Counted from the first letter of the stretch, positions 13,938-64,000 are shown. The stretch is 64,000 nucleotides of DNA from Deltaproteobacteria bacterium (GCA_018399745.1 JAGYNZ010000010.1:5416-69415); one strand, 5' to 3'. Numbers and translations: made by a program. Notes: generated by a model from the letters alone, not told the origin.

Positions 13938-15131
13938 CTATTCCCGCACGCTGATTCGTGAAATCGACTCTTCCCCCCGTATCAAAAGGATGAAAGACAA
14001 GATCCCTGCTGTCATTATTATTGCCCCCAGGGGGAACGCATTCTTGAGACCAAAATAATCCATGATAATACCGGCAAAAAAAGAACCTAGCAACATTCCC
14101 AGGCTGTGCCCCATTGTCAGAAGTCCCATGATTGATCCCATGGATTTGGTTTCATTGCCTTTTATTACACAAAGCGCCATTACCGGGGGAGTTGACAATC
14201 CACCTCCAACTCCAAAGAGGACATCCGCAACAATTATATCCCAAAATCCCTCTGCCCATGAAAATGAATATATTGCGTAAACGATTATCAGGCAGCCGGA
14301 TATAATCATATACTTTTTGTTAAGCCGGTCAGCCAGCAGGCCCATCGGCACCTGCAACATTCCGCTTATACATACTCCCAGCATGACAAGAATCCCGATC
14401 AAGGAACCTGAAAACCCGAACTCTAAATCCACATAAACGGGCAGGAAGCACCATATGATTCCAATGCAGAATATATAGCAAAGCCTTAAAATGAACAGTC
14501 CTGCTACAACCCTGTCCTTTAATAGCCCGGTAATCAAAGCCGGAGACCTATCCCTTCTCGCAACCCTTTCAGAACTGACAGGCGGCAGCAGGAAAAGGCT
14601 TAACATGCAGCCTATAAATGCAAGAATACCCATAGACGCAAAGGCTGAATTCAGGCTGAATTTATCACTGATCACCCCACCTGCAATAGGGCCGATGCTC
14701 AGGCTAAGAAACAGGGACAGATTAAAAAGACCCATATAAAAACCCTCGCTCCCTTCAGGTGTGATATCTCCTATATAGGCCTGTGCAACCGGCATGATCA
14801 TGGCAGACGCCATACCCTGTAAAAATCTTATGGCAATCAATGAATTGACATCGGATGAAAACATGAATGCAATCGAAACCAATGTATAGCCAAGCAGACC
14901 TGCGACAATAAAAGGCTTGCGCCCTTTTCTGTCTGAAGTCTTGCCAAAATATGGCAGTAGAAAAGTTCGTGAGAGGGAGAACGCACCGAAGATCAGGCTT
15001 ATATAAAGACCAGTAGCTCCAAGATTATGGGCATATACCGGCAGAAGCGGGACCACTATTCCCACGCCTGTAACAGACGTAAAAATGGAAAAGAAAATAG
15101 TCGCAAATATCTTTTTGTCAGATAAATTCAT
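13938..15131 (-). CDS. MFS transporter (DHA1-like)
   Basis: About 12 hydrophobic segments; GKTSDRKGRK and GLLADRLNKK motif A repeats. Confidence 0.9.
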   Translation of the reverse strand: MNLSDKKIFATIFFSIFTSVTGVGIVVPLLPVYAHNLGATGLYISLIFGAFSLSRTFLLPYFGKTSDRKGRKPFIVAGLLGYTLVSIAFMFSSDVNSLIAIRFLQGMASAMIMPVAQAYIGDITPEGSEGFYMGLFNLSLFLSLSIGPIAGGVISDKFSLNSAFASMGILAFIGCMLSLFLLPPVSSERVARRDRSPALITGLLKDRVVAGLFILRLCYIFCIGIIWCFLPVYVDLEFGFSGSLIGILVMLGVCISGMLQVPMGLLADRLNKKYMIISGCLIIVYAIYSFSWAEGFWDIIVADVLFGVGGGLSTPPVMALCVIKGNETKSMGSIMGLLTMGHSLGMLLGSFFAGIIMDYFGLKNAFPLGAIIMTAGILSFILLIRGEESISRISVRE

Positions 15132-15236
15132 ATGAGAGGGGAGGGGACCGGAAAATAATGCTTTTTACTCGGCGTGAAACGTATCAATCAATCGAAATCG
15201 GCCAATATGACTACTTTTGATTTTTTTGATAGAAGT

Positions 15237-16151
15237 TCAGTCCCGAGGCACGGCCATCATACGTTCTACGGCCTTGAGGGCTCTTAAACGAATCGGTTCG
15301 GGCAAAATAATTACCGGCCCTTCTGTCTGAAGCGCCCTCAACAACTCCTTCAGGCCTGTTTTTTTCATGTCTTTACAGATCATTTCGGAAGAAGCGGCAT
15401 AAAATTGTTTCGCCGGGTTTTGCTTTTTCAACTGATGTAATAGTCCTACCTCTGTAGCAACAATGAATTCCTTTGCCTTGGATTCCGCTGCAAAGATGAG
15501 CATGCCGCTGGTACTCCTTACCGCGTCCGCCATGTCCAGCACCTCGGGAACACATTCGGGATGCGCCATCAGCAGTGCCTCAGGATGAGCGGCTTTTGCC
15601 TTCTTGATCTGGTCAATAGTGAGTTCATTGTGAATCGGGCAATAGCCGGACCAGTAATGGATCTTTTTATCTGTGTGCCTCTGCGCCCACATTGCCAAAT
15701 TTTTGTCCGGGGTCATAAGGACTTCAGTTGCCTTTAAAGATTTAACGACCTGCACTGCGTTTGCTGAGGTGCAGCAGATATCGCTTTCTGCCTTTACTTC
15801 GGCTGTAGAATTTACATATGTGACCACAGGAATGCCTGGATACTTTGCTTTCTCAGCCTTAAGTTCTGAGGCGTTCAGCATATCAGCCATACCACAACCC
15901 GCATTTTTTACGGGCAGTATCACCTTTTTATCCGGGCATACAATGGCGGCGGTCTCAGCCATAAAACGGACTCCGCAAAATATTATGATATCGGCTTCAG
16001 TCTCTGATGCCTGGATACTCAGGGCCAGAGAATCCCCTGTGAGGTCTGCAATATCCTGAACCTCAGGCACCTGGTAATTGTGAGCCAGAATAATAGCGTT
16101 TTTCTCTTTTGCTAATTCACGGATTTTTCCGGCTAACTCTTTATTAGACAT
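15237..16151 (-). CDS. nadA: Quinolinate synthase
   Basis: ILAHNYQ, FCGVRFMAETA, YVNS, CCTSANA, AHPEC motifs. Confidence 0.97.
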   Translation of the reverse strand: MSNKELAGKIRELAKEKNAIILAHNYQVPEVQDIADLTGDSLALSIQASETEADIIIFCGVRFMAETAAIVCPDKKVILPVKNAGCGMADMLNASELKAEKAKYPGIPVVTYVNSTAEVKAESDICCTSANAVQVVKSLKATEVLMTPDKNLAMWAQRHTDKKIHYWSGYCPIHNELTIDQIKKAKAAHPEALLMAHPECVPEVLDMADAVRSTSGMLIFAAESKAKEFIVATEVGLLHQLKKQNPAKQFYAASSEMICKDMKKTGLKELLRALQTEGPVIILPEPIRLRALKAVERMMAVPRD

Positions 16152-49780: not shown

Positions 49781-51099
49781 TTTATTTTAGATAGGCTCAG
49801 TATGCCGGTGGGATCAAAGACCGGACGGCCGTCAATAAGAGTAAGGACGGCCCTTCCCTGGAGATCTTTTCCTAAAAAGGGGCTGTTATAACTTAAGGAA
49901 TGAAGAGATTCACGGGTTAAGGTAAAAATGGCCTTCGGATCTATGATGCATATATCAGCGGAATTTCCGCACTTCAAACTTCCTTCCGGCAGGCCCAGGA
50001 TCCTGGAGGGAGAAATAGACATACACCTGATCATTTGAGACGCTGAAATAAAACCATTTCTTACAAGGTTGAGTGAGAGGGGTACAGCTGTCTCAAGACC
50101 TATGATTCCGTTTGCAGCCATTTGAAACTCACATTCCTTTTCGATTACACTGTGGGGGGCATGGTCCGTGGCAATAACATCTATAGTGCCGTCCTTTAGG
50201 CCTTGGATAATTGCAAGACGATCCTCCTCTGTGCGGAGGGGCGGACTCATTTTGGCGAAGGTATTGTAGTCAAATACCGCTTCTTCTGTGAGACTGAAGT
50301 AATGGGGCGCAGTCTCTGCGGTAACCCGTACACCTCTGTTTTTGGCCTGTCGTACTATTTCAACCGAACCTTTTGTGCTTAAATGGGCAATGTGGAGACG
50401 GCCCCCGGTCCACTCAGCCAGGGCTATGTCCCTGAATACCGCAATTTCCTCAGCGGCTGCGGGAATTCCCTTAAGGCCTAAAATAGTAGATACCAGGCCC
50501 TCATTCATTGCGCCACCCTTGGAGAGATCAAGCTCTTCGGAGTGGGATATGATAAGTGCATCAAAGTTCAATGCATATTCCAGGGCCTTACGCATTACCG
50601 CCGCATTTTTCACGGGCAGTCCATCATCTGAGAAGGCTATTGCACCGGCACTGAGGAGGTCTCCAAATTCTGTCAATTGCTCTCCTCTTTGCCCCAGTGT
50701 AACGGCTGCAATCGGATAGACCTTTGCCCGGTCCGAACTCCGCGCCTTTTCCAGTATGAATCTCGTGATGCCCGCGGAATCATTAACAGGCTGAGTGTTG
50801 GGCATGCATGCCACTGCCTTAAAACCACCAGCTATAGCTGCAGCCGTGCCGGATTCAATAGTCTCCTTATATTCCTCTCCCGGCTCTCGCAGATGAACAT
50901 GCATGTCCAACAGACCCGGTACAAGCCATTTCCCCTTCAGGTCAAAGGCCATGGTATGTTGCGGAACTTCGATAGATTCACCCACAGCCGCTATTGTTCC
51001 GTCTTTTATCAGCAGATCACCGATGAAATCCATATTTTGGGATGGATCTATTATACGAGCATTTGTAAACAGACAGGTGTTTATAGATTTAGAGTTCAC
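49777..51099 (-). CDS. pyrC: Dihydroorotase
   Basis: DMHVHLREPG, MPNT, FSDDG, HIAHLST and IATDHAPH motifs; follows pyrB. Confidence 0.95.
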   Translation of the reverse strand: MNSKSINTCLFTNARIIDPSQNMDFIGDLLIKDGTIAAVGESIEVPQHTMAFDLKGKWLVPGLLDMHVHLREPGEEYKETIESGTAAAIAGGFKAVACMPNTQPVNDSAGITRFILEKARSSDRAKVYPIAAVTLGQRGEQLTEFGDLLSAGAIAFSDDGLPVKNAAVMRKALEYALNFDALIISHSEELDLSKGGAMNEGLVSTILGLKGIPAAAEEIAVFRDIALAEWTGGRLHIAHLSTKGSVEIVRQAKNRGVRVTAETAPHYFSLTEEAVFDYNTFAKMSPPLRTEEDRLAIIQGLKDGTIDVIATDHAPHSVIEKECEFQMAANGIIGLETAVPLSLNLVRNGFISASQMIRCMSISPSRILGLPEGSLKCGNSADICIIDPKAIFTLTRESLHSLSYNSPFLGKDLQGRAVLTLIDGRPVFDPTGILSLSKIN

Positions 51100-51245
51100 T
51101 GTTCCGGGTTACCTTTCTATAGGCGTTCATGGGGTTCCGGGTTCATAGGTTTTCCATGATCGATCTTCAGTTTTTTACGTTTGATGTTTCTTCCGTTGAC
51201 CTTTCGAGTTAACTATTACCCTTCAAACCCTGAACCTATGAACCC
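51094..51245. repeat. Inverted GGTTC/GAACC arrays at the pyrB-pyrC junction
   Basis: gttcactgttccgggtt..gttcatggggttccgggttcataggtt on the left and aaaccctgaacctatgaaccc on the right; same unit family as 4998-5212. Confidence 0.6.
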
Positions 51246-52165
51246 TTTGTGAGAAGCAGAGATAGCAGGGCCATTCTTATAGCTACTCCATTTGTGACCT
51301 GATCCAGGATTACAGAATATGGCCCATCCGCCACCTCCGGTGCCATCTCTACCCCACGATTGATAGGTCCGGGGTGCATGATCAATGCACCTGATTTGGC
51401 CAACCTTACCTTGTCAGGGCTGAGGCCGAAGAACAATCCATACTCCCTTAATGAAGGAATAAGACTCTGCCCCTGACGTTCTTTTTGAATCCTGAGGGCT
51501 ATTATTACATCAGCGTATTCCAGGGCGTCTTCCATCTTTAACACCACTTTTGCCCCCAGGACTTCGGATTGACGTGAAGGAAGCATGGTAGCAGGCCCGG
51601 ATACAACGACTTCTGCTCCCATCTTTGTAAAAGCCAGTATATCCGAGTGAGCTACTCTGCTATGAATTATATCTCCGAGTATGGCGATTTTTAATTTATC
51701 AATGTGTCCCAGGTGTTGCCTCACGGTAAAGACATCCAGCAGGGCCTGAGATGGGTGCTCGTTTATACCGTCTCCAGCATTGATTACGGCTGATTTAACG
51801 TATTTGGTGATCAGATGAGGAGTCCCCGTCTGGGGGTGTCGCATGACAATGACATCGGGCCTCATCGCCTCGATATTTCGTGCGGTGTCAATAAGGGTTT
51901 CTCCTTTTAAAACACTGCTGGTATTGGCTGAAATCGACACGGTATCCGCACTTAATCGCTTGGCTGCCAGCTCGAATGAGAGGCGGGTTCTGGTGCTTGG
52001 TTCAAAGAAGAGATGGACTACGGTTTTGCCGCGAAGCGGCGGTACCTTCTTGATAGGTCTTTCAAGGATATCTTTGAGAGACTCGGCAGTATCTAAAATG
52101 AAAGTGATTTCGTCCGGTGAGAGGCTGTATATTCCTAATATGTGTTGGGCAGTAAAGCGATTCAT
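51236..52165 (-). CDS. pyrB: Aspartate carbamoyltransferase catalytic subunit
   Basis: FFEPSTRT, KGET, NAGDG.NEHPSQALLD, HSRVA, RIQ.ER and HPGP.NRG motifs; AGGAGG RBS before ATG 52165. Confidence 0.97.
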   Translation of the reverse strand: MNRFTAQHILGIYSLSPDEITFILDTAESLKDILERPIKKVPPLRGKTVVHLFFEPSTRTRLSFELAAKRLSADTVSISANTSSVLKGETLIDTARNIEAMRPDVIVMRHPQTGTPHLITKYVKSAVINAGDGINEHPSQALLDVFTVRQHLGHIDKLKIAILGDIIHSRVAHSDILAFTKMGAEVVVSGPATMLPSRQSEVLGAKVVLKMEDALEYADVIIALRIQKERQGQSLIPSLREYGLFFGLSPDKVRLAKSGALIMHPGPINRGVEMAPEVADGPYSVILDQVTNGVAIRMALLSLLLTKGS

Positions 52166-52254
52166 GCCAAAAAAAAACCTCCTTTTTGAAAAAAAGGAGG
52201 TGATATGCGGCGTGTCTGCCAAAATATTTTGCTACGGACAAGCCTTACTTTCAT
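52162..52254 (-). CDS. Putative pyrB leader peptide (pyrL-like), 30 aa: MKVRLVRSKIFWQTRRISPPFFQKGGFFLA
   Basis: ATG 52254 to TGA 52164-52162, overlapping the pyrB ATG (ATGA); spans the U-tracts and the terminator hairpin. Confidence 0.6.
   Translation of the reverse strand: MKVRLVRSKIFWQTRRISPPFFQKGGFFLA
52169..52201 (-). terminator. Intrinsic terminator/attenuator containing the pyrB Shine-Dalgarno
   Basis: ACCTCCTTTTT-TTC-AAAAAGGAGGT 11-bp stem followed by 8 more T, ending 3 nt before the pyrB ATG. Confidence 0.8.
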
Positions 52255-52261
52255 AATGTTG

Positions 52262-52291
52262 GATGTAACACGAAGCATACGCATGAGTCAA
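52262..52291 (-). promoter_or_regulatory. Putative sigma-70 promoter for leader-pyrBC
   Basis: TTGACT-N18-TACATC with extended TG; predicted start site at or just before the leader ATG. Confidence 0.45.
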
Positions 52292-52520
52292 GTAAGTCGT
52301 GTTTAAGCTGAAAAAATCAATCGCGCAATATGCGTTTTTTGAATGTGCCTGTCTCTTGCCTGCTTTCCGGATGCAGGTAATTTCTAATATGCGTTGAATC
52401 AGAGATACCGGAATATGAAACAACCGTCCATCTCCAGCAGTGCGAGGGGATTAAGGGAGCGCAAAGGGAAGGAAATGAACGGTTCTGTTAGAAATTTTTT
52501 TTATCGGCTATCGGCCGGCC

Positions 52521-53861
52521 CTAAAATCCTACAGCTAATTGGAAAGTGGCGATGCTCTGGTCTTTCCTGTCGCTATCTTGTCCTACATAGGTATAGTCCA
52601 TGCTGACTTTGGCATTGTGTCCCTTGACGAAGTAATTTAATCCTGCAGTTATGAATTCCGTATCGTCTTTGTCATCCACGTCAACCGCCTCATATTTGAC
52701 ATAAGGCTGGAGACGGCCGGGACCTATGTTGCCCGGCAGCAGATATCCTGACTGGATGTACCAGTTCTGGGCATCATCTCCTGCCGCCAACTCGGAAAAA
52801 TTATGTGTCTGAGTGCAATTCTGAATGTCAATATAGGCAGCTTCTGCAGTTATGGCACCCCCTCCCAGAGGATGGTCGAAAAAGACGTCAGCGGTCCATA
52901 CGAGGTTGTTCTGGTCCTCTTGGCCGTTCAAGGTCAGATCATTTTGAGTGTCGCAGCCCAGACCAAGACTCAGGACTTTTTTCTTGCCGAGATAAGTCCC
53001 CATATTAAACCAGTTTTTCTCGGGTTCAAGGAGATTGAGGGCCACACGACCAGCAAAGCGAAGGTTGTCATCAGGATTGTTGTCATTTTCGACCCCTTCA
53101 GAGACCATGAATCGGTATTGCAGGAGCCCGTCCAGGGGGTTGCCCCAAATTGTCACACTGTCATCTCGACCTACCTTGCTGGCATAAAAGATACTTCCGC
53201 GCACACCGCCTTGTAGAAAGGGTAGATCGGTGGTCAACATGCACTTTGTCGATGTTGTGCCATAGTTGCGTGTAAGGGGGACATACATCCTGCCGACCTG
53301 AACCTTTAAGGCCTCATGCAACTTCAGGGTAATCCAGAGGTCACGGATCGCGATACCGCTCCCAAGACCTACTGAAGGGCTGTCCAGTCCTTCCTGTCCG
53401 ATCCGGTCGGCAGCTATGTGCGTAAAGAAGCTGAAATAAGGAGTTATGTCACCCTTAAGATAGAGGTAAAATCTCCGTGCCATAAAATCGTTAAGGTCTC
53501 CGCCATCCTTCTTTCCATGTTCCACATACTGATACCAGACCTGTGTCCATGCCCCGATTTCTCCCTTGAGTACTTTGTCATCGATCCCCTTCGCTACTTC
53601 ATATTTCTCATGCTGGCGTTGTTCTTCCAGTACCGCCACCTCTTTCTGTATTTTTTTCGCCTCTTCTTCCGTAATTACACCCTTGCTAATCAGGATATCG
53701 ATGAGCGGATCTTGCCTGTCGTATTCTTTTAGCTGTGAAGCGCCGGGTTTTTCTTTACCAGTCTGGTCATCAATTCCGAACTTGAATCCTCCCCATGCAG
53801 AACTCCCTGTCCAGAAAATACAGGCCATGAAAACAAACAGCATTTTTACAAATCGATTCAT
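52521..53861 (-). CDS. Outer-membrane porin (OprO/OprP-like anion porin)
   Basis: Signal peptide, LIDIL.SKGVIT.EEA N-terminal motif, F.ARR..L...G.., amphipathic beta strands and C-terminal Phe. Confidence 0.8.
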   Translation of the reverse strand: MNRFVKMLFVFMACIFWTGSSAWGGFKFGIDDQTGKEKPGASQLKEYDRQDPLIDILISKGVITEEEAKKIQKEVAVLEEQRQHEKYEVAKGIDDKVLKGEIGAWTQVWYQYVEHGKKDGGDLNDFMARRFYLYLKGDITPYFSFFTHIAADRIGQEGLDSPSVGLGSGIAIRDLWITLKLHEALKVQVGRMYVPLTRNYGTTSTKCMLTTDLPFLQGGVRGSIFYASKVGRDDSVTIWGNPLDGLLQYRFMVSEGVENDNNPDDNLRFAGRVALNLLEPEKNWFNMGTYLGKKKVLSLGLGCDTQNDLTLNGQEDQNNLVWTADVFFDHPLGGGAITAEAAYIDIQNCTQTHNFSELAAGDDAQNWYIQSGYLLPGNIGPGRLQPYVKYEAVDVDDKDDTEFITAGLNYFVKGHNAKVSMDYTYVGQDSDRKDQSIATFQLAVGF

Positions 53862-54002
53862 CTCTTTACTCCTTTCCCTTTGATGTAGTTTTGTAGATAT
53901 TTTTGTAAATTTATTTACAGGAAAAACTCTCCCTGGTTCACTGAATGTGTTCCTTCAGCAGGACAAAAAGAATTATTAGAATTCTTAATCATTTGGACGA
54001 AC

Positions 54003-54076
54003 TTTTATATCATGATAATCAATAGGTCAAATAGAAATAATTGATATTAAATAATAATTCTATTGAGTTTTTCTAT
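54003..54076 (-). promoter_or_regulatory. Shared promoter/operator copy A (porin), two LysR-type boxes
   Basis: 59/74 identical, ungapped, to 62201-62274; boxes ATAGAAATAATTGAT (54031-54045) and ATTGAGTTTTTCTAT (54062-54076). Confidence 0.75.
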
Positions 54077-54206
54077 TCTGGAAATTAACCCGCCATGGTC
54101 CCTGATTATGTTGTTGTCCAGTTTACCGGAGAGGCGACAAAGAAGCGCACAGGGTGTAGTCGAGCGGTGATGTCTGCTTGGCAGGGAGTGATCTGGACGG
54201 TTATGG

Positions 54207-54773
54207 TTATCCCATACCGGAAGGGCAAACTTTTTTTATCCTATTCGATACGCCGTAGGCCTTTAAGAGATAACGGGCTGCTGAGGGGACCAGATTCTCC
54301 CACGGCTTATCCTGAGAGATAAGCTTCCTGATATATGTTGAGGACAAGCCTTTTTGTTCAATGGGCCTTCGCCATAAAACCTCGGTTTTGAGGCCCATGG
54401 ATTGAAACATTTCGAGTTTCTTCTCACCCCATCTATCATAAATGGTCAAAAAAAACAGGGCATCAAAGGGGACATAGTATTTGTAGAGTTCAGGTACATT
54501 GATGGGAAAAGGGACTATGGAGAACTCATTTATTACAAGCCCCTGTTGCAGCAATACGGCTTTAACTACCCGGTATCTTTCATAATATGTAAAAGGGTTT
54601 GCATTCAGTGAATCCCTGAGCGGGTCCGCAGCGTCTTTACGGGTCAGGGTTGGGTCCGGGTTGGTTATTCCGACAACAAGGTGCCTGCATTTTGACTTTG
54701 CGGCCATCAGGTATTTAACGTGGTCATTATGCAGGATCTGAAAGCGTCCGTGAATAATGCCTGTTTCAGCCAT
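54207..54773 (-). CDS. Cytidylyltransferase-like nucleotidyltransferase (NMN/NaMN adenylyltransferase-like)
   Basis: GIIHGRFQILHNDH (HxGH-like), VVGITN, NPFTY.ER and SST.IR motifs. Confidence 0.8.
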   Translation of the reverse strand: MAETGIIHGRFQILHNDHVKYLMAAKSKCRHLVVGITNPDPTLTRKDAADPLRDSLNANPFTYYERYRVVKAVLLQQGLVINEFSIVPFPINVPELYKYYVPFDALFFLTIYDRWGEKKLEMFQSMGLKTEVLWRRPIEQKGLSSTYIRKLISQDKPWENLVPSAARYLLKAYGVSNRIKKVCPSGMG

Positions 54774-54848
54774 AATCACCCTGAGATTTTTTTAAAAAAG
54801 AGTAACATGATAACTCCGGGAGTAATCAGCATTCCGTACTACGTGACG

Positions 54849-56159
54849 TTATTCCAGACTGAAAGGTGTTCTGTGTCCTGGCCAATAGGCCTGATCTTCC
54901 GGGGTGTCCATAAGGCCCCTTAGTTTCGCTCTATCCAGAAAATCAAGTATCATAGGCATGAAGTCAGACCCTGTCACAAAACCCAGTGCTCCACCGGCAC
55001 AATTAATTTCGTCAAAGCGTTCAACATCATCCCTGCGAATTCCTTGCCCGACTATGGTAATCGGCACAGGTTCCCCTGAGTGAATCAGAGGACCGGCAGA
55101 GGGGGTGGAGTGATCGGATGTGATCACAAGTAATAATTCAGGGTCCTCAAGCAGCGTGTTGAGGACACTTCCCAACCCCCTGTCCAGAGACTCGATTACA
55201 TCCCTTTTAAGGCGGGGATTTTTCGTGTGGGCGGCAGAGTCCGGAGTCTTGGTGTGTACATGGATAAAATCAAAATCACGAACGTTTGACAGGGCGAGCC
55301 TGATCCGGTCGGCGAGGTCTTTATCCGGATCTAAGCTGTCATGCTGCTTCAAAAACTCTATGCCCAGAAAGGTGGACAATCCCCAAAAAATCAGGCCTGA
55401 GGATATTGATAATCCCCTGAGCCCCCAGCGTTGGTAAAAATGATCAACCTTCTTAAGTCTGCCAGGGCGATGAGTCGCAAGGGCATTTATGGGAAATTTT
55501 TTTTCCATCTGCCTTTTTAAATTGACTTGGTGGCATTTAAGCCTGCTATAGCAGTCCCGAAGAAATTCTTTAAGAATTCTGGAGGTGGTCTGTGCCTTAA
55601 GGTCTTCACGATTCGAATCGAGAGGCTGTATTTCTATAAAAGGCATACCTTCCTGCAGGGGATCTGAGTCGGTTACATGCGGGGAAGCACCGCCTTTCAT
55701 CAGAACAACACCATCGAGACCATGTGTCTGAACAAAATATACCTTAAGACCGTCGGCCTTATGTATAGTGATCCCCTTTAGAATTTGATCTATTTCTTCT
55801 GTAGTGGCCTTCGGTCTGTCTTTTCTGAGTATAAGTGTGTTGTTTTTCTCGGCCACACTTACAAAGTGTGCCAAAAAAGCCACGTCATCAGGGCGGACGG
55901 GAATTCCAGCTCCCAGCGCCTCCAGTATTCCTCTTCCTGGAAATTCCTCCTGTCTGTAGCCGAACAGGGCGAAGTGTGCATTTTCACTGGGGAGGGCCAG
56001 GCCCTGCCTTTTACCATGAAACAGACCATTGCCGCCCAGCCTTGCGAGTCTGTCGAGGTTAGGGGTTTCGGCTGCCTGCAGCGGGGTTTTGCCGCCCAGA
56101 TTTACATATGCCCGGTCACCGAGACCGTCCAGCAGTATCAATATACATTTAGAAGGCAT
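54849..56159 (-). CDS. Cofactor-independent phosphoglycerate mutase-like enzyme (ApgM / alkaline phosphatase superfamily)
   Basis: LLDGLGD, TPLQAA.TPNLD, PSENAH..LFGY, GRG.LEALG, HTK.PD.AAH, TSDHST and HSGEP motifs; start trimmed to ATG 56159. Confidence 0.85.
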   Translation of the reverse strand: MPSKCILILLDGLGDRAYVNLGGKTPLQAAETPNLDRLARLGGNGLFHGKRQGLALPSENAHFALFGYRQEEFPGRGILEALGAGIPVRPDDVAFLAHFVSVAEKNNTLILRKDRPKATTEEIDQILKGITIHKADGLKVYFVQTHGLDGVVLMKGGASPHVTDSDPLQEGMPFIEIQPLDSNREDLKAQTTSRILKEFLRDCYSRLKCHQVNLKRQMEKKFPINALATHRPGRLKKVDHFYQRWGLRGLSISSGLIFWGLSTFLGIEFLKQHDSLDPDKDLADRIRLALSNVRDFDFIHVHTKTPDSAAHTKNPRLKRDVIESLDRGLGSVLNTLLEDPELLLVITSDHSTPSAGPLIHSGEPVPITIVGQGIRRDDVERFDEINCAGGALGFVTGSDFMPMILDFLDRAKLRGLMDTPEDQAYWPGHRTPFSLE

Positions 56160-56275
56160 TAAACGATTATACTGAAAAAGGTCTGAAATATAGTTCTCAA
56201 ATTTAATATATGTTCTCCAGTAAAAGCAGATAGTGGAAATTTTGCAATATAAAATCATAATTGAATATGATGCTA

Positions 56276-56290
56276 ATAGAAAAAATCTAT
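56276..56290. promoter_or_regulatory. LysR-type palindromic box in the divergent iPGM-like/PHP promoter
   Basis: ATAG-AAAAAAT-CTAT (ATAG-N7-CTAT). Confidence 0.55.
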
Positions 56291-56355
56291 GGACATCTTG
56301 CTTTTCATATATAAAATCAATTTGACTTTTTGCCAAATTATCAGAAACATATAAC

Positions 56356-56979
56356 ATGCTTTTTGACTTTCATGTACATACCCGAATTTCACCATGCAGT
56401 GACCTTGATCTGAAGGATATATTGAAACACGCCAGGTCCAGAGGTCTGGACGGGGTTTGCATTACTGATCACGATACAATGGACATAAGAAATTTTTGCC
56501 AGGAAGGAATACAACGAGACGGTCTATGCATAATTTTCGGAATGGAATATTCGACTGCAGAAGGGGATTTCCTCATCTTTGGTCCATTTGAAGGAGTGCC
56601 CCGGGGACTTTCAGCAAAAGAGATTCTCACAGAGGCAGATAAATCGGGTGGAGTGGCTATTGCAGCGCATCCTTGCAGGAAGGCCCGTCCTACCATGGAG
56701 TATGTTATCAAAGAAGGATATTGCCGTATAGTGGAAGGGATAAACGGCCGGAATCAAAGACATGAAAATCAGATGGCCATGTCTTTGTATCAGAATTATT
56801 CTGTCTCATTTTTAGGTGGCAGTGATTCGCACACCCTGGAAGAACTGGGCAGCATTTCTACCCTCATTTATGGCGCGATAAGGACAAGGTCGGATTTAAT
56901 TAATGCCGTTAAACAAGGAAATTTTGCCCTCGATACCCGGAATCATATGAATTCCTTGCAGCCGGAATCGTCTTTGTAG
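56356..56979 (+). CDS. PHP-domain metallo-phosphoesterase
   Basis: DFHVHT, CITDHD, GMEY, AAHP, EGINGR and GGSDSH motifs. Confidence 0.88.
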   Translation: MLFDFHVHTRISPCSDLDLKDILKHARSRGLDGVCITDHDTMDIRNFCQEGIQRDGLCIIFGMEYSTAEGDFLIFGPFEGVPRGLSAKEILTEADKSGGVAIAAHPCRKARPTMEYVIKEGYCRIVEGINGRNQRHENQMAMSLYQNYSVSFLGGSDSHTLEELGSISTLIYGAIRTRSDLINAVKQGNFALDTRNHMNSLQPESSL

Positions 56980-57150
56980 TCTCAATGCTGGCAAAGTAAT
57001 CGTTTCGCTGTACTCGAAATTATAAATATCTTCCAAAGTCCCTTTACTTATATTGATTTCTTTTAATAAATTATTCTTTCTGCATCGGTAGAATTTTAAT
57101 AATAAAATGCTAATCTTTTAGGTTTAGGTACAAGGATAAAGGAAAATGCA

Positions 57151-58200
57151 ATGAGCGCGCAGAAAAGACTTCGTCTCACCGAGACGGTTTCCGGTGCAGG
57201 GTGAGCCTCAAAAATTCCTCCAGGGGACCTGGACAGGGCATTATGCGGACTGGAATACCCAGTTGACCCCAATCTTATCGTGGGATTACAGCGGGCTGAC
57301 GACGCGGCCGTATATAAAATCACCGACGATATTGCCATAATACAGACGGTGGACTTTTTCACTCCAATCGTCGATGATCCATACTGGTTTGGCCAGATTG
57401 CCGCTGCCAATGCATTGAGTGATGTCTATGCCATGGGGGGTGTTCCCAAAACGGCAATGAATATAGTGTGCTTTCCTTTGAAAAAAATGGATCTTTCCGT
57501 CCTCCGGCGGATCATTCAGGGTGGATTGGATAAGATGAAGGAGGCGGATGTCGTTTTGGTGGGTGGGCACAGTGTGGAGGATGCTGAATTGAAATACGGT
57601 CTGTCTGTCACTGGTTTTGTCCATCCAAAACGCATCCTTATTAAAAAAGCCATGGAACCAGGGGATCATTTGATCCTGACCAAGGCCTTGGGTACTGGGA
57701 TTATCAATACGGCCATTAAGGCTGGAATTGCCTCCAATGAGACCATTGAAAGCGTCACTCGTCTCATGGCTACCCTTAATCGGGATGCGGCTGATGTGAT
57801 GCGACATTATCCGGTCCATGCATGTACCGATGTTACCGGTTTTGGTCTTTTGGGTCACATGTGCGAGATGATAGTAGATACCGATATAGGAATTAATTTA
57901 CAGGCCAGCCTGGTCCCATGCCTTCCTGAGGCCATGGAATATGCCCGAATGGGTCTGGTGCCGGCCGGAACTTATAAGAACCGGGAATTCCGTGAGGCAT
58001 TTGTGGATTTTGCACCTTCTGTGGACGGGTTTATGCAGGACATCCTTTTCGATGCCCAAACCTCCGGCGGGTTACTGATTTCAGTGGCAGGAGAGGCAGC
58101 TAATCAATTGCTGAGTGATTTACAAAGAAGAGGGATGACCAGCGCAACAGTAATAGGTAAGGTAGTGTCTGAGCCAAAAGAGAAGATTTTAGTGGTATAA
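57151..58200 (+). CDS. selD: Selenide, water dikinase (selenophosphate synthetase), Sec18, 349 aa
   Basis: ATG 57151, MSAQKRLRLTETVSGAGUASK with TGA at 57202-57204, in frame with the DDAAVY, TVDFFTP, NALSDVYAMGG, TDVTGFGL.GH and DAQTSGGLL motifs. Confidence 0.97.
57219..57233 (+). promoter_or_regulatory. Bacterial SECIS hairpin (selD)
   Basis: TCCAGG-GGA-CCTGGA perfect stem, loop at +21 to +23. Confidence 0.85.
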
Positions 58201-58267
58201 TTGCGCCCTGCGGACTTGATTTAACTTAGGCATAAGTTTTTCGGTCTCTCTCCGCAGTTTTCTGCTT

Positions 58268-58927
58268 TCAGTATATTAGTATTAGACCAAGATGTGATAC
58301 GCAGGGTAACTCAGATGGTAGAGTGAGCTTTCCTGCAGGATAGATATCCCAGCCTGCCCGAATCGCCATTTTGAAAACATCCATTCCTACTGCGTGCATT
58401 GAGGGCCTCCCTCTCAAGGGATGTCGACAACTCTGGCCTGCTATTATAGCACTGCAGTCATCTTCTGGGCACAGGACTGATTTGCATGAAGATCCTCCAA
58501 AACCGAGTGCCAGATAGTAACCATCATAATATGCCTGAGCTTCAATCCTTGATACGATCTCAAAACTCTTTATCTTTATATCTCGGTCGCACCCAACCAG
58601 TGTTTCAGCCGATCCATCCAGTTTAAAAAAGATGGCATAATCGAAATTATTCACCATTATTCTGATTTGATCTGGACGAGGAGTATAAGGTGGGCAATTT
58701 ACGTTAGTTCCACAGACCGGACACCTCGGAAACATACATTTTGCAACCACTCTCTCGTCAATCACTATGTCACTAGAATTGATGATTTTGGCATCCGTTG
58801 CCCCAATTTTGACGGCACGTTGCCTATATTTTTCAAGATCATTTTCAAGGACCTCTTCAGGGACGTATTCTACAATTTTGTGAAGCACGGCGTTTCTTTT
58901 CTCAAGTTTTCCGAAGACCAGGATCAT
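58268..58927 (-). CDS. DUF2284 family Cys-rich metal-binding protein
   Basis: KC..P.C..CG.N..CPP, GGSSC...LC....C......CR.P..GRPSM.AVG.DV motifs. Confidence 0.8.
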   Translation of the reverse strand: MILVFGKLEKRNAVLHKIVEYVPEEVLENDLEKYRQRAVKIGATDAKIINSSDIVIDERVVAKCMFPRCPVCGTNVNCPPYTPRPDQIRIMVNNFDYAIFFKLDGSAETLVGCDRDIKIKSFEIVSRIEAQAYYDGYYLALGFGGSSCKSVLCPEDDCSAIIAGQSCRHPLRGRPSMHAVGMDVFKMAIRAGWDIYPAGKLTLPSELPCVSHLGLILIY

Positions 58928-59108
58928 TATTCTTATCAGAACAGATCCATCTCACTAATATCAAAAAATTTAGGACTTCGTCTTCCTGACATGATCCCAG
59001 CCCCTTTTTCCCCTTCACTGAGGCCGGACTGGGCTGGTTTCCTTATCAATTAAAATTAATGAATCGAGTAAGTTGTGTACTTGATATTGTATTGTCCGGA
59101 ATCTGGAT

Positions 59109-59360
59109 TTAATTTCGATCCATTGTACCGTGATTGATCTCTGCCTTCAGGTCCGAAATCAGCTCTTCCATGTCTATTTTATATTTTTCAGTCACTTTTT
59201 CCAGGGTCTCGAACAGTGCGTTGCAACAGATACATGTCCCAGCCTGTTTGTCGTATTTTCTGAATACAGTCTCTGTTTTCCTGTACAGGTGAATGATTTC
59301 AAGCACAGTCATTTCCGGATGAATGTCATATATGTGTAATTTCTTTAATTCTGTATTCAT
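59109..59360 (-). CDS. Small DUF1858-like protein with CICC motif
   Basis: I.PEMTVLEII..Y..TE.VF..Y....G.CICC.ALFETLE; translationally coupled to the upstream gene. Confidence 0.65.
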   Translation of the reverse strand: MNTELKKLHIYDIHPEMTVLEIIHLYRKTETVFRKYDKQAGTCICCNALFETLEKVTEKYKIDMEELISDLKAEINHGTMDRN

Positions 59361-60220
59361 TTCTTACCCAAGAGTAGCTCCGCCAGGGCCCGGGGTATAT
59401 GGTCAATGATCTCAATTACCTGGGTAGCCGGTGTGGGCTTTGAGAAATGACCGGCCAGGCGGTTGGCCCGGGCCGAAAAGACAGCGGCTTTCTCTATTTC
59501 CCATTCTGCGCTGATAAGAGCGGCTGCTATACCCGTCACGATATCTCCAGTACCACCTATGGCCTCCAATGCCTCCTCTGCCGGTTTTTTGATTGTGGCT
59601 CGAATCCCTCCCTGATCAGCTACGTAGTCGTCTTTCCCTTTAACCAGGAGAAAGCGAGAGGCATTCTTATGACTGTATGCGCGAGCGATCATATCCGGCA
59701 CACGGTTTTCTTCGTGCAGAATAAAACCGCGGGTATAAAACGGGTGAGGCGCATCTTCATCCGCCAGAAAGGCCAATTCCCCGACATCGGGTGTGAAGAG
59801 GTCGTATTCCGAGGCCATGCCGCTCATCTTGGCTGCATACATGAAGCCGGCATCTGCAATGAGGACCGGCCTGCGCGTCATTTCTTTCACCACAAGCAAG
59901 ACCCGATTATGCCAATCCACATCCGGTTGAACATAGTGAAAGGCAATGGTGCTAAAATCATTTTCTTTGATATGCCTGGTAAGATATTCATAGAGCAGTC
60001 TGCTGCCATCTCCCAGACCGATATCCCCGATCAAATACCCAAATGGTTCAGGTCGGCCCAGGGTCTCTGCGGTCTTAATTGCTGCAGCCAGAAGGGCAGG
60101 GGTGCCCCGGTTTACCGGGACCTCATTGCCCTGAATGTATAAACGGTCTCCCTGCAATGTGGCCTTTCCCGCAACCAGGGGGAAGCCTTGATCAGGCACG
60201 GTTCCGACTACTGCGAGCAT
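59357..60220 (-). CDS. Ribokinase-fold enzyme (NnrD/ThiM-like carbohydrate kinase family)
   Basis: VLIADAG, LFTPDVGEL, LLVKG and GGTGD anion-hole motifs. Confidence 0.75.
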   Translation of the reverse strand: MLAVVGTVPDQGFPLVAGKATLQGDRLYIQGNEVPVNRGTPALLAAAIKTAETLGRPEPFGYLIGDIGLGDGSRLLYEYLTRHIKENDFSTIAFHYVQPDVDWHNRVLLVVKEMTRRPVLIADAGFMYAAKMSGMASEYDLFTPDVGELAFLADEDAPHPFYTRGFILHEENRVPDMIARAYSHKNASRFLLVKGKDDYVADQGGIRATIKKPAEEALEAIGGTGDIVTGIAAALISAEWEIEKAAVFSARANRLAGHFSKPTPATQVIEIIDHIPRALAELLLGKK

Positions 60221-60759
60221 CGGTGCTTCATCTCCTCAAATGCCAGCTGAAGTGCATAGCCACACAGGGTGTGGCCGATTTCGCGCGGCGCTGGTGCCTG
60301 ATTTAAAGTTTTGCCTACCAGCTCTTTTGCCAGGTATGGGACATCCGGGCAGCCGCCGCCCGAGACATTCACAATGGTCAGGGTTGCCTTTTCCACGGTG
60401 AGCTTCATGTTTGCCGCCCGCACCATAAGGTGTGCCCCATAGTCTTTGACCTGAAAGATGTCCACAGGTTTTAGCAATGGACTGGTTGACGGAACTGCTT
60501 CTAAGGGCGATATTTCCGCCTCTTGAAGGGTCCTCAGTATATTCAACTCTTCTATCAGGGAAAACTCAATGACCAGATCACAGCCGTGCTGAATCTCAGG
60601 GGGAGGCCCCATGACACGGATTTCCCATTTCTGACTCTTAAGAATGCGCTCAGCCCTTATCACCTCACTGGTATTTTCAAATATCAGAATACCACGGTCC
60701 AAATTTTGTTTTTTGGTCTTTAACGCCTTCTGCTTAAAAAAGGAGTTCAGAAGAGCCAC
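60208..60759 (-). CDS. DUF3343 domain protein with C-terminal extension
   Basis: F.NTSEVIRAE.IL...PP.I..GC.L DUF3343 pattern; C-terminal GGGCPD and HTLCG motifs. Confidence 0.75.
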   Translation of the reverse strand: MALLNSFFKQKALKTKKQNLDRGILIFENTSEVIRAERILKSQKWEIRVMGPPPEIQHGCDLVIEFSLIEELNILRTLQEAEISPLEAVPSTSPLLKPVDIFQVKDYGAHLMVRAANMKLTVEKATLTIVNVSGGGCPDVPYLAKELVGKTLNQAPAPREIGHTLCGYALQLAFEEMKHRCSQ

Positions 60760-60761
60760 GG

Positions 60762-60980
60762 CTATCCCTTTGCCATTGTAATTCTATACTCATCGTTTTC
60801 TGACTGAATATCCGTGGCAAGCCATCCCTGGCTTGCGGCGGCCCGGATAACATTTTCTCTGGCGGCTTCATTATCTACAAGGACTACGATCTCTCCATTG
60901 TCTGTCGCACTGATCCCGTCCAGGGTCATCATTACAGGCTGAGGACATGAAAATCCCCGCGCATCAATAGTCTTGGCCAT
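60762..60980 (-). CDS. TusA/SirA/YedF-family sulfur/selenium carrier
   Basis: IDARGFSCPQPV...VLVDNEAA.ENV motif. Confidence 0.9.
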   Translation of the reverse strand: MAKTIDARGFSCPQPVMMTLDGISATDNGEIVVLVDNEAARENVIRAAASQGWLATDIQSENDEYRITMAKG

Positions 60981-60992
60981 TTGTGTCTCTCC

Positions 60993-62084
60993 TTATGCAG
61001 CCTTTCTTCTCATGGTAAATCCGATAAATAAGCAGAACAAAAATCCTATAACCACCGCGGCAACACCATAAGGTCCGATTCCTTTTGGTGAGCTGGCCAG
61101 GCCGAAGTTGTGGGCTAAACCGGCACCCGTAATCATTCCCAGGCAGAATACTGCAGCATCCCCGTCCCCTTCGCCTGCCATAAAGAGCTGCCGTCCCGGA
61201 CATCCACCAGCCAGCGCGAAGGCCATGCCGGCTACCAACATGCCGGCAAAATTCCAGAAGGCCATTGTATGCGCCACCGGCTGATTTTCAAAACCAGGGT
61301 GAAACTGACCTGCAACAAAGTTGGTGATCCAAGCAGCAATCAATAGGGCCATGACCCCTAAAAAGAGATGGACCTGTCTGAACAGGATAAGGTCCCGAAA
61401 GGCCCCCATGGTGCAGAAACGGCTCCTTTGGGCCAGGAAACCTACGCCAAGTCCAATGGCCAGAGACACAATAAGCGGGGCATGCATAGCCCCTGGCCCC
61501 TTGATGCTGTAAAAGAGTATTCCGCTTCTATCCTGCCCGGGAACATATGGAAACAGCAGCAACAGTACAAGGAACCCCAGCATGGTTATAGGAAGGATCC
61601 ATCCTGCGGAGGTATACGTCTTATGAGAGCGTCCCAGATCATATCCGGACCTCATGAAAAAGGTGGCTATCCAGATACCGGTTATCAGACCGAGCAGCCC
61701 GAAAATGGCATTTCCGTCTCCACCGGCCAGACGCAAAATGGCCCGCCAGGGACATCCCAGGAAGACCAGTGCCCCTATCATGGCAAATACGCCCAGCATA
61801 TATCTCACTATGGGGGATGAGCCCCCCCGGGAACGGAATTCTTTGAACAAAAGAGATGAAATCAACGAACCCAGGACAAATCCGATAATTTCAGGTCTTA
61901 TATATTGCACTACCGCTGCCCGGTGCAATCCGAGTGCGCCTGCGATGTCCCTCTCAAAACAGGCTACGCAGATGCCCATGTTCCCAGGGTTACCCCATTT
62001 CTGAAGAAGAGCGGCGAAAATCCCGATTAAGATACCCACAGCTATTATTCCCCAGGGAGTTACAAAGTAATTTTTAGAAAACAT
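60993..62084 (-). CDS. yedE: YedE-family putative selenium transporter
   Basis: GNPGNMGICVACFERDIAGALGLH, YIRPEI.G, FLGCP.R, RSRFCT.G and GGCPGRQ motifs typical of the Se-associated YedE subfamily. Confidence 0.92.
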   Translation of the reverse strand: MFSKNYFVTPWGIIAVGILIGIFAALLQKWGNPGNMGICVACFERDIAGALGLHRAAVVQYIRPEIIGFVLGSLISSLLFKEFRSRGGSSPIVRYMLGVFAMIGALVFLGCPWRAILRLAGGDGNAIFGLLGLITGIWIATFFMRSGYDLGRSHKTYTSAGWILPITMLGFLVLLLLFPYVPGQDRSGILFYSIKGPGAMHAPLIVSLAIGLGVGFLAQRSRFCTMGAFRDLILFRQVHLFLGVMALLIAAWITNFVAGQFHPGFENQPVAHTMAFWNFAGMLVAGMAFALAGGCPGRQLFMAGEGDGDAAVFCLGMITGAGLAHNFGLASSPKGIGPYGVAAVVIGFLFCLFIGFTMRRKAA

Positions 62085-62200
62085 TATCCTGACTACCTCT
62101 CTTTTTCTGAAGATTGTTTACCCTAAAAGATTTTTCCTTGTGCACTGATTGAGGGGGTACGCATTCGAAAGGTCATGACTCCAAATAAAATTGAGAAGTG

Positions 62201-62274
62201 TTTTACATCAGGATAATCAATAAAACAAATAGAAATTATTAATGCTAAATAAAAAGATTATTGAATTTATCTAT
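62201..62274 (-). promoter_or_regulatory. Shared promoter/operator copy B (yedE operon), two LysR-type boxes
   Basis: 59/74 identical to 54003-54076; boxes ATAGAAATTATTAAT (62229-62243) and ATTGAATTTATCTAT (62260-62274). Confidence 0.75.
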
Positions 62275-62690
62275 GGAAGAAATCGATCGAAGAGTTGACG
62301 TATTAATCCATAAACCGTTTTTCGGTTTTTTTATGAAGGCGCACACATTTCCTGTGATTTTTCTTGGATTTTGACAAATTTAATTTTTGAGATCATACTG
62401 ATTTAAAGGATAGTTGTTTTCCGACCTTTGAATAAGGATTGCTGCTGCAAGGAAAATTAAAGTTTAAGATCGGGTAAAGGCATTTGGCACAACCGCCGCG
62501 ACAACGGAATGTCTGAACTGATCGGAAGACACACTGTGAAGATAAACAGAACTCTGGATATCGTTTAATCGGATGCATTGTGACATGCCTGAATAGATTA
62601 TTATATTGCTGTCAATTGTTTATACTTCTTTTTGCCAACGCATATATTGATTGTGCACACAGCGAGACCAACTGCGATATGGAGGAGACT

Positions 62691-63161
62691 ATGATCCTTA
62701 CTTCTACAGCATTTGAACATAATGGGGAAATCCCGAGTTTATACACATGCGATGGGCAGGATATTTCACCGCCGCTTGCCTGGAAAGGCTGGCCTGCAAA
62801 GACAAAGAGCCTGGTTTTGATAGTGTATGATCCAGACGCACCGGATCCAAGGGCACCGAAGATGACATGGGTACACTGGATACTTTATAACATACCTCCT
62901 CATGAAAGCAGTATTCAACAGGCCGTTAAGTCTACTGACCTTCCTTCGGGTACTTTGGAAGGCCTCAATGATTGGAATCGTGAGGGATATGGGGGCCCGT
63001 GCCCTCCGATTGGCAGGCACCGATACTTCCATAAACTTTATGCCCTAGATGAGGTACTCCCTGAAATGGGAACTCCGACAAAGGCTGAAATAGAAAAAGC
63101 CATGACAGGGCACATAATTACTACAGGCGAGCTCGTGGGGACCTACGAGCGAACTCGGTAG
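62691..63161 (+). CDS. YbhB/YbcL (PEBP) family protein; a longer start at 62580 is possible
   Basis: L.S.AF..NG.IP..YTCDG.DISPPL.W, DPDAP, WVHW and GYGGPCPP.GRHRYF motifs; GGAGG RBS before 62691. Confidence 0.9.
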   Translation: MILTSTAFEHNGEIPSLYTCDGQDISPPLAWKGWPAKTKSLVLIVYDPDAPDPRAPKMTWVHWILYNIPPHESSIQQAVKSTDLPSGTLEGLNDWNREGYGGPCPPIGRHRYFHKLYALDEVLPEMGTPTKAEIEKAMTGHIITTGELVGTYERTR

Positions 63162-63276
63162 GCACTAGATCCACGGGAAAGGGACTAGAGAGTCTCTGAC
63201 TATCATCATCTGGAGATCATTCTATTAAGATTCCATGCTGGATCATGATTAAGAGGCTTTAAGAAATCTCCTTAAT

Positions 63277-64000
63277 ATGGGTATTCCCAGTCTCAGATCA
63301 TTGATCCTTTCCCTGGCCTCCAAAAGGCTGGCAGTCATGTTGCCACTGGGGTTTGCCTCGGGGCTTCCCCTGGCCTTGACCAGCGGTACATTACAGGCCT
63401 GGCTCACTGTCGATGGAGTGGACATTCGCACTATCGGCCTTTTCAGCCTTGTGGGTATTCCGTACACGTTGAAATTTTTCTGGTCACCCGTGATGGATCG
63501 CTTTCATCCACCCTGGATGGGAAGACGAAGGGGATGGATACTTATCACACAAGGGATCCTGGTGTCAGGGATCATTGCCATGGCCTTTACGGCGCCTGCT
63601 GGCGCCCCTTTCCTTATGGCCTGTCTAGCCATTATGGTGGTCTTTAGTTCTGCATCCCAAGATATCGTAATTGATGCCTATCGTACTGAGTTGCTGGAGG
63701 AGAGAGAGCGAGGACTGGGAGTCGGGCTCTCGGTTACCGGTTACAGAATTGCCATGCTGGTGTCCGGGGCCTTGGCCCTCATACTGTCAGATCGCATAGG
63801 CTGGCAAAACACCTATATTTTAATGGCGGGCATCATGTCATTAGGAATTTTTGCGACCGTTGTTGGCCCGGAGCCAGGTCTTTCACTTTCACCTCCGGGT
63901 AGTATGGCTGAGGCGATTTCAGGCCCTGTAAAGGAATTTTTCTCAAGGCCGACAGCATTTTCCATATTAGCGGTCATTATACTTTACAAGCTTGGAGATG
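63277..64000 (+). CDS. ampG: AmpG-family muropeptide MFS transporter, runs off the right edge
   Basis: Not in the ORF track. Manual translation gives LGFASGLPLAL..GTLQAWL, YTLKFFWSP.MDRF, GRRRGW, SASQDIVIDAYR, GYRIAM and LYKLGD. Confidence 0.92.
   Translation, partial: MGIPSLRSLILSLASKRLAVMLPLGFASGLPLALTSGTLQAWLTVDGVDIRTIGLFSLVGIPYTLKFFWSPVMDRFHPPWMGRRRGWILITQGILVSGIIAMAFTAPAGAPFLMACLAIMVVFSSASQDIVIDAYRTELLEERERGLGVGLSVTGYRIAMLVSGALALILSDRIGWQNTYILMAGIMSLGIFATVVGPEPGLSLSPPGSMAEAISGPVKEFFSRPTAFSILAVIILYKLGD

Follow-up and report, generated by a model that had tools for sequence, protein, structure and literature searches.

Little is understood of how selenium is perceived by bacteria and how they regulate its uptake. 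Since it was put forward from gene neighbourhoods (Lin et al. 2015, PMC5322559), the regulator LysR_Se has remained a prediction from genomes only; the terms 'binding site', 'promoter' and 'porin' have no occurrence in the main text of that paper, and in the literature searched we found no description of a LysR_Se operator motif, of its geometry, or of porin or PHP targets. The closest described systems are HrsM, a LysR-type protein that binds an intergenic region and mediates selenium-dependent control in Methanococcus maripaludis (PMC11097638), and LysR-type target promoters more generally, which carry three sites (RS, AS1 and AS2) of T-N11-A form, with RS the most symmetric (PMC11495319). 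Here we analysed a 64,000-nucleotide (nt) stretch (hereafter, the window) from a Deltaproteobacteria bacterium (GCA_018399745.1, JAGYNZ010000010.1:5416-69415; genome G000, 2.65 Mb, 88 contigs, 45.5% G+C), in which two copies of an intergenic element lie upstream of a gene for an ExtI-like outer-membrane porin and upstream of the yedE operon. A previous reading made from the sequence alone (the sequence-only reading) had proposed that both belong to one regulon controlled by a LysR protein encoded elsewhere, and every part of that proposal that could be tested computationally held. The element is a real, selected, duplicated operator-promoter of a selenium regulon, representing LysR-type control and not a new kind of system, and we consider it likely that both stretches are one regulated promoter with a built-in operator, with a LysR_Se protein encoded on another contig (C26) as the probable regulator. 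Below, genomes, contigs and loci are denoted by G, C and L numbers, respectively.

Aligned without gaps, the two copies (54003-54076 and 62201-62274) agree at 59 of 74 positions. They share the same orientation and lie upstream of minus-strand start codons, the distance being 141 nt to that of the porin gene (53861) and 116 nt to that of yedE (62084), all as the sequence-only reading had placed them; the match widens to 83 nt at 77% identity (54003-54085 versus 62201-62283). When each 74-mer was compared ungapped with every position of the 88 contigs, on either strand, the runner-up reached 42/74 for the porin 74-mer and 44/74 for the yedE 74-mer; the similarity of the two copies far exceeds these genome-wide controls. 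Likewise, an nhmmer profile of the 88-nt core returned significant E-values for these two copies only (2e-17 for yedE, 6e-16 for the porin; next E = 2.4). The copies are as follows:

54003..54085, minus strand, promoter/operator element, porin copy (83-nt match; nhmmer E = 6e-16; kept before the porin in G009, G012, G015 and G004)
62201..62283, minus strand, promoter/operator element, yedE copy (nhmmer E = 2e-17; before yedE in 7/7 species)

Within the genus, all seven species with a yedE gene carry the element upstream of it, whereas alignment is lost in the DNA beyond. Mean pairwise identity of the element core is 0.79, compared with 0.67 at four-fold degenerate sites of yedE, and is higher in 20 of 21 species pairs; because the element is more conserved than these sites, it is under selection. 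The two copies clearly arose by duplication and could thus be imagined as a neutral relic left by a segmental duplication of recent date, or as a small mobile repeat, devoid of any regulatory role, an explanation to which we give almost no credence: only two copies occur in 2.65 Mb, both at the same place relative to a gene start (on which grounds a dispersed repeat or miniature inverted-repeat transposable element was also rejected), synonymous sites are less conserved in those 20 species pairs, and a matrix trained on other orders recovers the boxes within the element (see below).

Each copy contains three T-N11-A boxes of the form ATWG-N7-CWAT, 31 and then 22 nt apart, which on the gene strand run from site 1 (ATAG-N7-CAAT) through a degenerate site 2 to site 3 (ATTG-N7-TGAT). 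The sequence-only reading had recognized two 15-nt boxes 31 nt apart per copy; both exist at that distance, but the proximal ones have degenerate right halves and are not strictly of the CTAT type, and the third box of each copy (54009-54023 and 62207-62221) comes in addition to them. The boxes and the putative core promoter elements are listed here, with scores from a matrix that was trained solely on boxes upstream of yedE genes from outside the genus and scanned over the whole window genome:

54062..54076, minus strand, site 1 of the porin copy; distal, most symmetric, proposed regulatory (anchor) site; ATTGAGTTTTTCTAT on the plus strand (score 16.6, genome rank 11)
54031..54045, minus strand, site 2 of the porin copy; proximal, degenerate, abutting the -35; ATAGAAATAATTGAT (score 7.9; 31 nt from site 1)
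54025..54030, minus strand, putative -35 hexamer TTGACC of the porin copy (read from sequence; TTGAC abuts the box in many taxa)
54009..54023, minus strand, site 3 of the porin copy, between -35 and -10; ATTGATTATCATGAT on the gene strand (read from sequence; 22 nt from site 2)
54004..54009, minus strand, putative extended -10 TATAAA after TGn, porin copy (read from sequence; 15-nt spacer to the -35)
62260..62274, minus strand, site 1 of the yedE copy; ATTGAATTTATCTAT on the plus strand (score 19.6, genome rank 2)
62229..62243, minus strand, site 2 of the yedE copy; ATAGAAATTATTAAT; abutting a putative -35 TTGTTT at 62223-62228 (score 12.5; 31 nt from site 1)
62207..62221, minus strand, site 3 of the yedE copy; ATTGATTATCCTGAT on the gene strand; putative -10 TGTAAA at 62202-62207 (read from sequence)

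Under these putative -35 and -10 assignments the 15-nt spacer is suboptimal, and site 3 overlaps TGnTATAAA in the porin copy and TGnTGTAAA in the yedE copy; in the alignment, T.AT.TAAA at the -10 is invariant in 11 of 11 copies. Across the two copies and a third promoter described below, distal boxes score 16.6-19.9 and proximal boxes 7.9-12.9.

The same box recurs outside the genus. We compared 74 loci containing yedE, taken from Desulfobacterota outside the genus and from a few further groups, the upstream regions of which contained 29 ATWG-N7-CWAT boxes in 19.2 kb (24 of the 74 loci), compared with 1.6 ± 1.2 (maximum 5) in 500 local shuffles of those regions. Box density was 1.51 per kb upstream of yedE and 0.091 per kb in the rest of the loci, and each of the other spacings from N4 to N10 yielded only 1-4 boxes. 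Among 52 box pairs in other taxa, distances peaked at 31/32 nt (19 pairs), 22 nt (9 pairs) and 53 nt (6 pairs), which is the geometry of the window copies; in two loci from Desulfovibrio or Pseudodesulfovibrio (L107 and L106), for example, the boxes upstream of yedE are ATTGATATACTCTAT or ATAGATTCCTTCTAT. A matrix scan, proposed as a check in the sequence-only reading, also recovered the window boxes: among 2.65 million positions, the foreign-trained matrix ranked 56274 first (19.9), 62258 second (19.6) and 54060 eleventh (16.6).

The top-ranking position belongs to a third promoter, in the divergent intergenic region between an iPGM-like gene and a PHP-domain gene, where the perfect ATAG-N7-CTAT described by the sequence-only reading is present at 56276-56290 and is joined by a second box (56307-56321) that it had not described. 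This region and the genes around it comprise:

56276..56290, plus strand, site 1 of the third promoter, perfect ATAG-N7-CTAT ATAGAAAAAATCTAT, facing PHP (score 19.9, top match in the genome)
56307..56327, plus strand, site 2 of the third promoter, ATATATAAAATCAAT (56307-56321), with an abutting TTGACT as putative -35 (score 12.9; exactly 31 nt from site 1)
56356..56979, plus strand, PHP-domain phosphoesterase (Pfam)
57151..58200, plus strand, selD, selenophosphate synthetase (AIRS domains; in-frame TGA for selenocysteine (Sec) at 57202-57204)
54849-56159, minus strand, iPGM-like metalloenzyme (start probably Met-67 of a long open reading frame (ORF))
54207-54779, minus strand, cytidylyltransferase-like gene, which with the iPGM-like gene forms part of the DNA parting the porin from the yedE operon

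Site 1 of this promoter is kept in G009, G001, G008, G003, G002 and G004, and in a Desulfovibrionaceae locus (L075) the corresponding iPGM-like/PHP intergenic region carries ATAGGATAAATCTAT abutting TTGTCA. An AAACAT hexamer resembling a -10 lies 17 nt downstream of TTGACT, and since the PHP ATG follows only 5 nt further on, the PHP mRNA is probably leaderless. In G001 (L236), G004 (L241) and G012 (L043), PHP has decayed to short fragments and the box-bearing promoter is kept before selD; because the box pair has outlasted PHP in G001 and G004, the promoter most likely serves selD, and no plus-strand terminator was called between PHP and selD. The sequence-only reading had tied both the porin and the phospho-enzymes to selenium. 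For the porin this stands, as it shares one operon with yedE in three sister species, whereas control of the iPGM-like and cytidylyltransferase-like genes does not follow, the box pair pointing to PHP and selD.

Three further features of these genes were observed. The selD ATG at 57151 lies upstream of the listed ORF, with the TGA in SGAG-U-ASK at the Sec/Cys position, and a hairpin at 57219-57233 just downstream of the TGA is probably a selenocysteine insertion sequence (SECIS) element; by these features SelD itself is predicted to be a selenoprotein in the window genome, as in G017. On the other side, the 502-amino-acid iPGM-like ORF overlaps the PHP start head-to-head, with its domain beginning at residue 70, and a perfect minus-strand TATAAT is followed, 6 nt on, by an in-frame ATG at 56159. 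The two divergent genes, PHP as well as iPGM-like, may have leaderless mRNAs.

As to the regulator, the window genome has only two LysR genes, on contigs C26 and C38. The C26 gene (ORF 14544-15476; true start at Met-12, giving G000:C26:14544-15443) scored 279.0 bits on NF040786, the model for the 'selenium metabolism-associated LysR family transcriptional regulator' (cut-off 250), and C38 failed at 207.1 bits; a selenium-associated LysR gene away from the locus, as the sequence-only reading had anticipated, is therefore present. LysR genes adjacent to yedE in other taxa also passed NF040786 (five of five scanned; a sixth, L068, was outside the scan). We then used 80 loci that were retrieved not by scanning with NF040786 but through an alignment of six LysR proteins that pass it. 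In these, box density was 4.3-fold higher within 300 nt of the LysR gene (16 boxes in 51.8 kb compared with 31 in 431.7 kb), and the composite of a box abutting TTG occurred six times in LysR flanks and not once in the remaining 432 kb. Boxes next to TTGAC flank LysR genes in three other phyla, with examples from Methylomirabilota (L171, L179 and L185), Gemmatimonadota (L178 and L189) and an anammox genome (L209); the box of L189 lies in the LysR gene's own promoter, as in L199 and L214, and the arrangement in L068 is divergent. The LysR_Se gene also lies near Sec or selenium genes in L059, L062, L065, L069, L111, L152, L159 and L168.

In its recognition helix, LTQPSVSGHIRALEE, C26 closely matches the box-adjacent Methylomirabilota LysR proteins, whereas the C38 helix differs (23/70 identities, versus 34-41/70 in all but two of 14 LysR proteins adjacent to boxes; those two, L189 and L209, have 28 and 29). 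Only the C26-type LysR was found in five of the six element-bearing sister species (G009, G012, G013, G015 and G011); the single match in G007 is not among the best listed. We also considered selenocysteine in the LysR protein itself and rejected it, the in-frame stops of G012 and L068 lying upstream of the true Met start.

In two Methylomirabilota loci (L171, 2367-3489; L185, 2142-3265), a TTGACT-abutting box comes after the LysR_Se gene and ahead of a gene for a phosphonate-type ATP-binding cassette (ABC) substrate-binding protein (PF12974), a candidate selenium-related transporter. Phosphonate-type transport genes also rise on selenium depletion in M. maripaludis (PMC11097638).

Several observations weigh against this interpretation, some against the operator and others against the identity of the regulator. 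Regarding the operator, the 74 foreign yedE loci are phylogenetically related, and their box counts consequently overstate independence; neither the specificity for N7 nor the cross-validation of the matrix depends on the independence of these loci. Fifty of the 74 upstream regions have no exact box, and many of the box-less genes may be internal operon genes with selD, DUF1858 or a porin upstream. Other non-coding matrix matches in the window genome adjoin unrelated genes (NHL-repeat, Cas6, MttB, UvrC, RpoD/GreA and inositol-phosphate synthase), and the regulon in this genome appears to be limited to the present locus. Site 3 is weak in the PHP promoter, and a simple sigma-70 scan, the rules of which admit neither a 15-nt spacer nor a -10 with a final A, did not call the putative porin and yedE core promoters (15-nt spacer, TATAAA/TGTAAA). 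Regarding the regulator, the C26 gene is unlinked to selenium genes throughout the genus (in G000 it sits beside genes for an RhlE-like helicase and a class II aldolase), and the matrix scan found no box scoring above 3 upstream of its start; autoregulation is usual for the LysR family. Of 41 relatives, 37 have an orthologue of C26, some of them lacking the yedE operon. The phyletic pattern does not single out the C26 gene: it fits selD (33 of 41 relatives), nearly all relatives having both, and yedE occurs in 19 of 41 at E <= 0.001, with only seven close orthologues.

These latter points would also be expected if the operator were real and shared but served by a different protein, that is, a transcription factor of another family or the C38 LysR. 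The absence of linkage, the lack of a box in C26's own promoter and the near-universal presence of its orthologue in the order all speak for such a protein, and 15-bp dyads are not exclusive to LysR proteins. We nevertheless consider it unlikely, albeit worth some weight, given the boxes abutting TTGAC beside LysR genes of four phyla that were fetched with the LysR_Se alignment (with all six composites in the flanks), the T-N11-A form and three-site geometry typical of LysR operators and, for C38 in particular, its different recognition helix and the failure to find C38-type LysR proteins in five element-bearing species.

Beyond the element, the porin and yedE leaders also resemble each other. 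The 16/22 match noted by the sequence-only reading (53926-53947 versus 62130-62151) is present but weak alone, as 8 of 200 shuffles reached it, and it is only from the alignment with relatives (11 yedE and porin leaders of the genus) that the two leaders are clearly seen, at the level of sequence, to be homologous, with the motif CAGTG.A...GG.A.A.T.TTT in 11 of 11 copies (window 53926-53960 and 62130-62160). The conserved block might accordingly be thought to act mainly as RNA, for example as a 5'-leader riboswitch, an attenuator or a Sec-sensing mini-gene. This we regard as very unlikely: a scan of 50000-64000 gave no Rfam match at E <= 1, RNAalifold returned no consensus structure (folding z-scores of -1.4 to +1.1), the 11 leaders share no conserved mini-ORF containing an in-frame TGA, and the element of G017 abuts the selD ATG with no leader at all. 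Furthermore, it is the box array, and not the leader, that is best conserved.

The origin of the two copies can be read from gene order in the genus. In the window, the genes and leader concerned are:

52521..53861, minus strand, outer-membrane porin, ExtI-like (PF07396; NF040900 porin_ExtI 148.6 bits)
53862..54002, minus strand, porin leader, homologous to the yedE leader (alignment)
59109..62084, minus strand, yedE operon (Pfam and NCBIfam)
60993-62084, minus strand, yedE (TIGR04112 seleno_YedE 487 bits; cut-off 200)
60762-60980, minus strand, tusA-like gene of the yedE operon
60208-60759, minus strand, Se/S-carrier gene (DUF3343) of the yedE operon
59357-60220, minus strand, YjeF_C/Carb_kinase-like gene of the yedE operon
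59109-59360, minus strand, DUF1858 gene of the yedE operon

This operon order is kept in most of the 74 foreign loci, and yedE has orthologues in six other species of the genus (86-96% amino-acid identity). In G013, G011 and G007, the element is followed by yedE, tusA, the Se/S-carrier, kinase-like and DUF1858 genes and then by the porin, which closes the operon and has no separate element. In G000, G009, G012 and G015, the porin is parted from DUF1858 by other genes (in G000, DUF2284, selD-PHP, and the iPGM-like gene with the cytidylyltransferase), and a second copy of promoter and leader precedes the porin; the two leaders of G015 are nearly identical. Synteny thus shows the ancestral state in the genus to be a single operon ending in the porin. 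Because the porin has its own element only where genes intervene, and is the last operon gene in three species, the two copies represent one promoter plus leader that was duplicated when the operon was split, and the second copy kept the porin under the same control after the insertions. One duplication event or several are both possible: in the 88-nt core, the porin copy of G015 is closest to the yedE copy of G013 (89%), and porin copies outside the G000/G009 pair are 74-75% alike. Elsewhere in the genus, G017 has the element immediately ahead of selD (E = 3e-20), the ATG of which follows the -10 by 7 nt, and G004, which lacks the canonical yedE operon, has it ahead of the porin (E = 1e-17).

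Other features near these genes include a DUF2284 protein (58268-58927) between the yedE operon and selD, which weakly matches the DUF2284 selenoprotein families MbdU and ArsM-DUF2284 and was not found at the equivalent position in G012. Just upstream of the yedE element, a hairpin at 62312-62328 with flanking A- and T-runs (AAACCGTTTTTCGGTTT), kept only in G009 and G012, looks like a bidirectional terminator that would insulate the element from the PEBP/MFS side. In species without canonical yedE (G008:C178, G004:C55, G002:C230 and G017:C114), a distant split YedE-like pair (~30% identity) and a TusA-like gene lie beside selD.

From sequence and comparison alone, we infer binding, the start site and the direction of control according to the following scheme. 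A LysR-type tetramer, probably the C26 LysR_Se, would bind the sites with one dimer anchored on site 1. A second dimer on site 3 would block the core promoter; on site 2, next to the -35, it would instead contact RNA polymerase and assist it where the 15-nt spacer makes for a poor promoter. An effector reflecting selenium status would set the choice between sites 2 and 3, such that selenium scarcity would lead to more import across the outer (porin) and inner (YedE) membranes and to more activation (SelD). Induction under scarcity might be expected because yedE mRNA rises by 5.28 log2 on selenium depletion in M. maripaludis (PMC11097638), and the sign of control proposed here is a guess by analogy.

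The locus and its relatives supply an operator that is defined in sequence, in its three-site geometry and in its placement with respect to the -35, together with a candidate for the regulator and a regulon list (the yedE operon, the ExtI-like porin and PHP-selD), making the LysR_Se regulator directly testable. The duplication of the promoter at the operon split is a natural experiment, arguing that the porin must stay co-regulated with YedE, and the box could be used to find further selenium genes, such as that for the phosphonate-type ABC binding protein in Methylomirabilota.

A bolder extension, which we think rather improbable as a whole, is that the three-site ATWG-N7-CWAT operator is the missing DNA target of LysR_Se in a multi-phylum selenium regulon that includes the ExtI-like porin, which with YedE would give a two-membrane route for selenium import, and a cytidylyltransferase-like/iPGM-like/PHP trio, the trio making or recycling a nucleotide-linked seleno-phospho metabolite that is possibly the effector sensed. 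A selenium link of the iPGM-like and cytidylyltransferase-like pair is suggested because both genes lie in or beside yedE/selD operons in 7 of the 74 foreign loci (L061, L063, L074, L075, L104, L113 and L116). The proposed chemistry is suggested because the iPGM-like protein weakly resembles PhpG (a sub-threshold match of 184.8 bits; cut-off 545), which works with a cytidylyltransferase on a phosphate analogue.

Compared with known systems, the two copies most resemble the BenM, CatM and CbnR promoters, which have one regulatory and two activation sites and work by a 'sliding dimer' mechanism (PMC11495319). They likewise have three T-N11-A dyads, the distal one most symmetric and the proximal ones degenerate, over the -35 and spacer, which in the window are putative. 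The window box, ATWG-N7-CWAT, parallels the ATAC-N7-GTAT of BenM with a different half-site sequence. Unlike in classical LysR-type promoters, the regulator gene is unlinked here and lacks an autoregulatory box, and copies of a single operator-promoter precede three or four transcription units. The spacings in the window are 31 and 22 nt, and sites in classical LysR-type promoters shift by about one helical turn. The OxyR operator reportedly consists of four elements, ATAG-N7-CTAT-N7-ATAG-N7-CTAT (Toledano et al. 1994), which sites 2 and 3 together match in half-sites and phasing (ATWG-N7-CWAT-N7-ATWG-N7-CWAT), whereas the window has an extra anchor site 31 nt upstream and its downstream genes are selenium genes. 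The C26 LysR was rejected as an OxyR, reaching only 100 bits on NF008361 (cut-off 329). It passes the LysR_Se model, and the organism and its relatives have selD; the described targets of HrsM are Cys-isoform hydrogenase operons, not yedE. Finally, ExtI of Geobacter sulfurreducens is reported to be an outer-membrane porin tied to selenite and tellurite (PMC5877670), and the window porin is also of Porin_O_P type, with NF040900 as its best and only NCBIfam match, at a score just below the cut-off of 150 bits; in contrast to ExtI, its context is an assimilatory yedE operon and not a cytochrome (ext) cluster.

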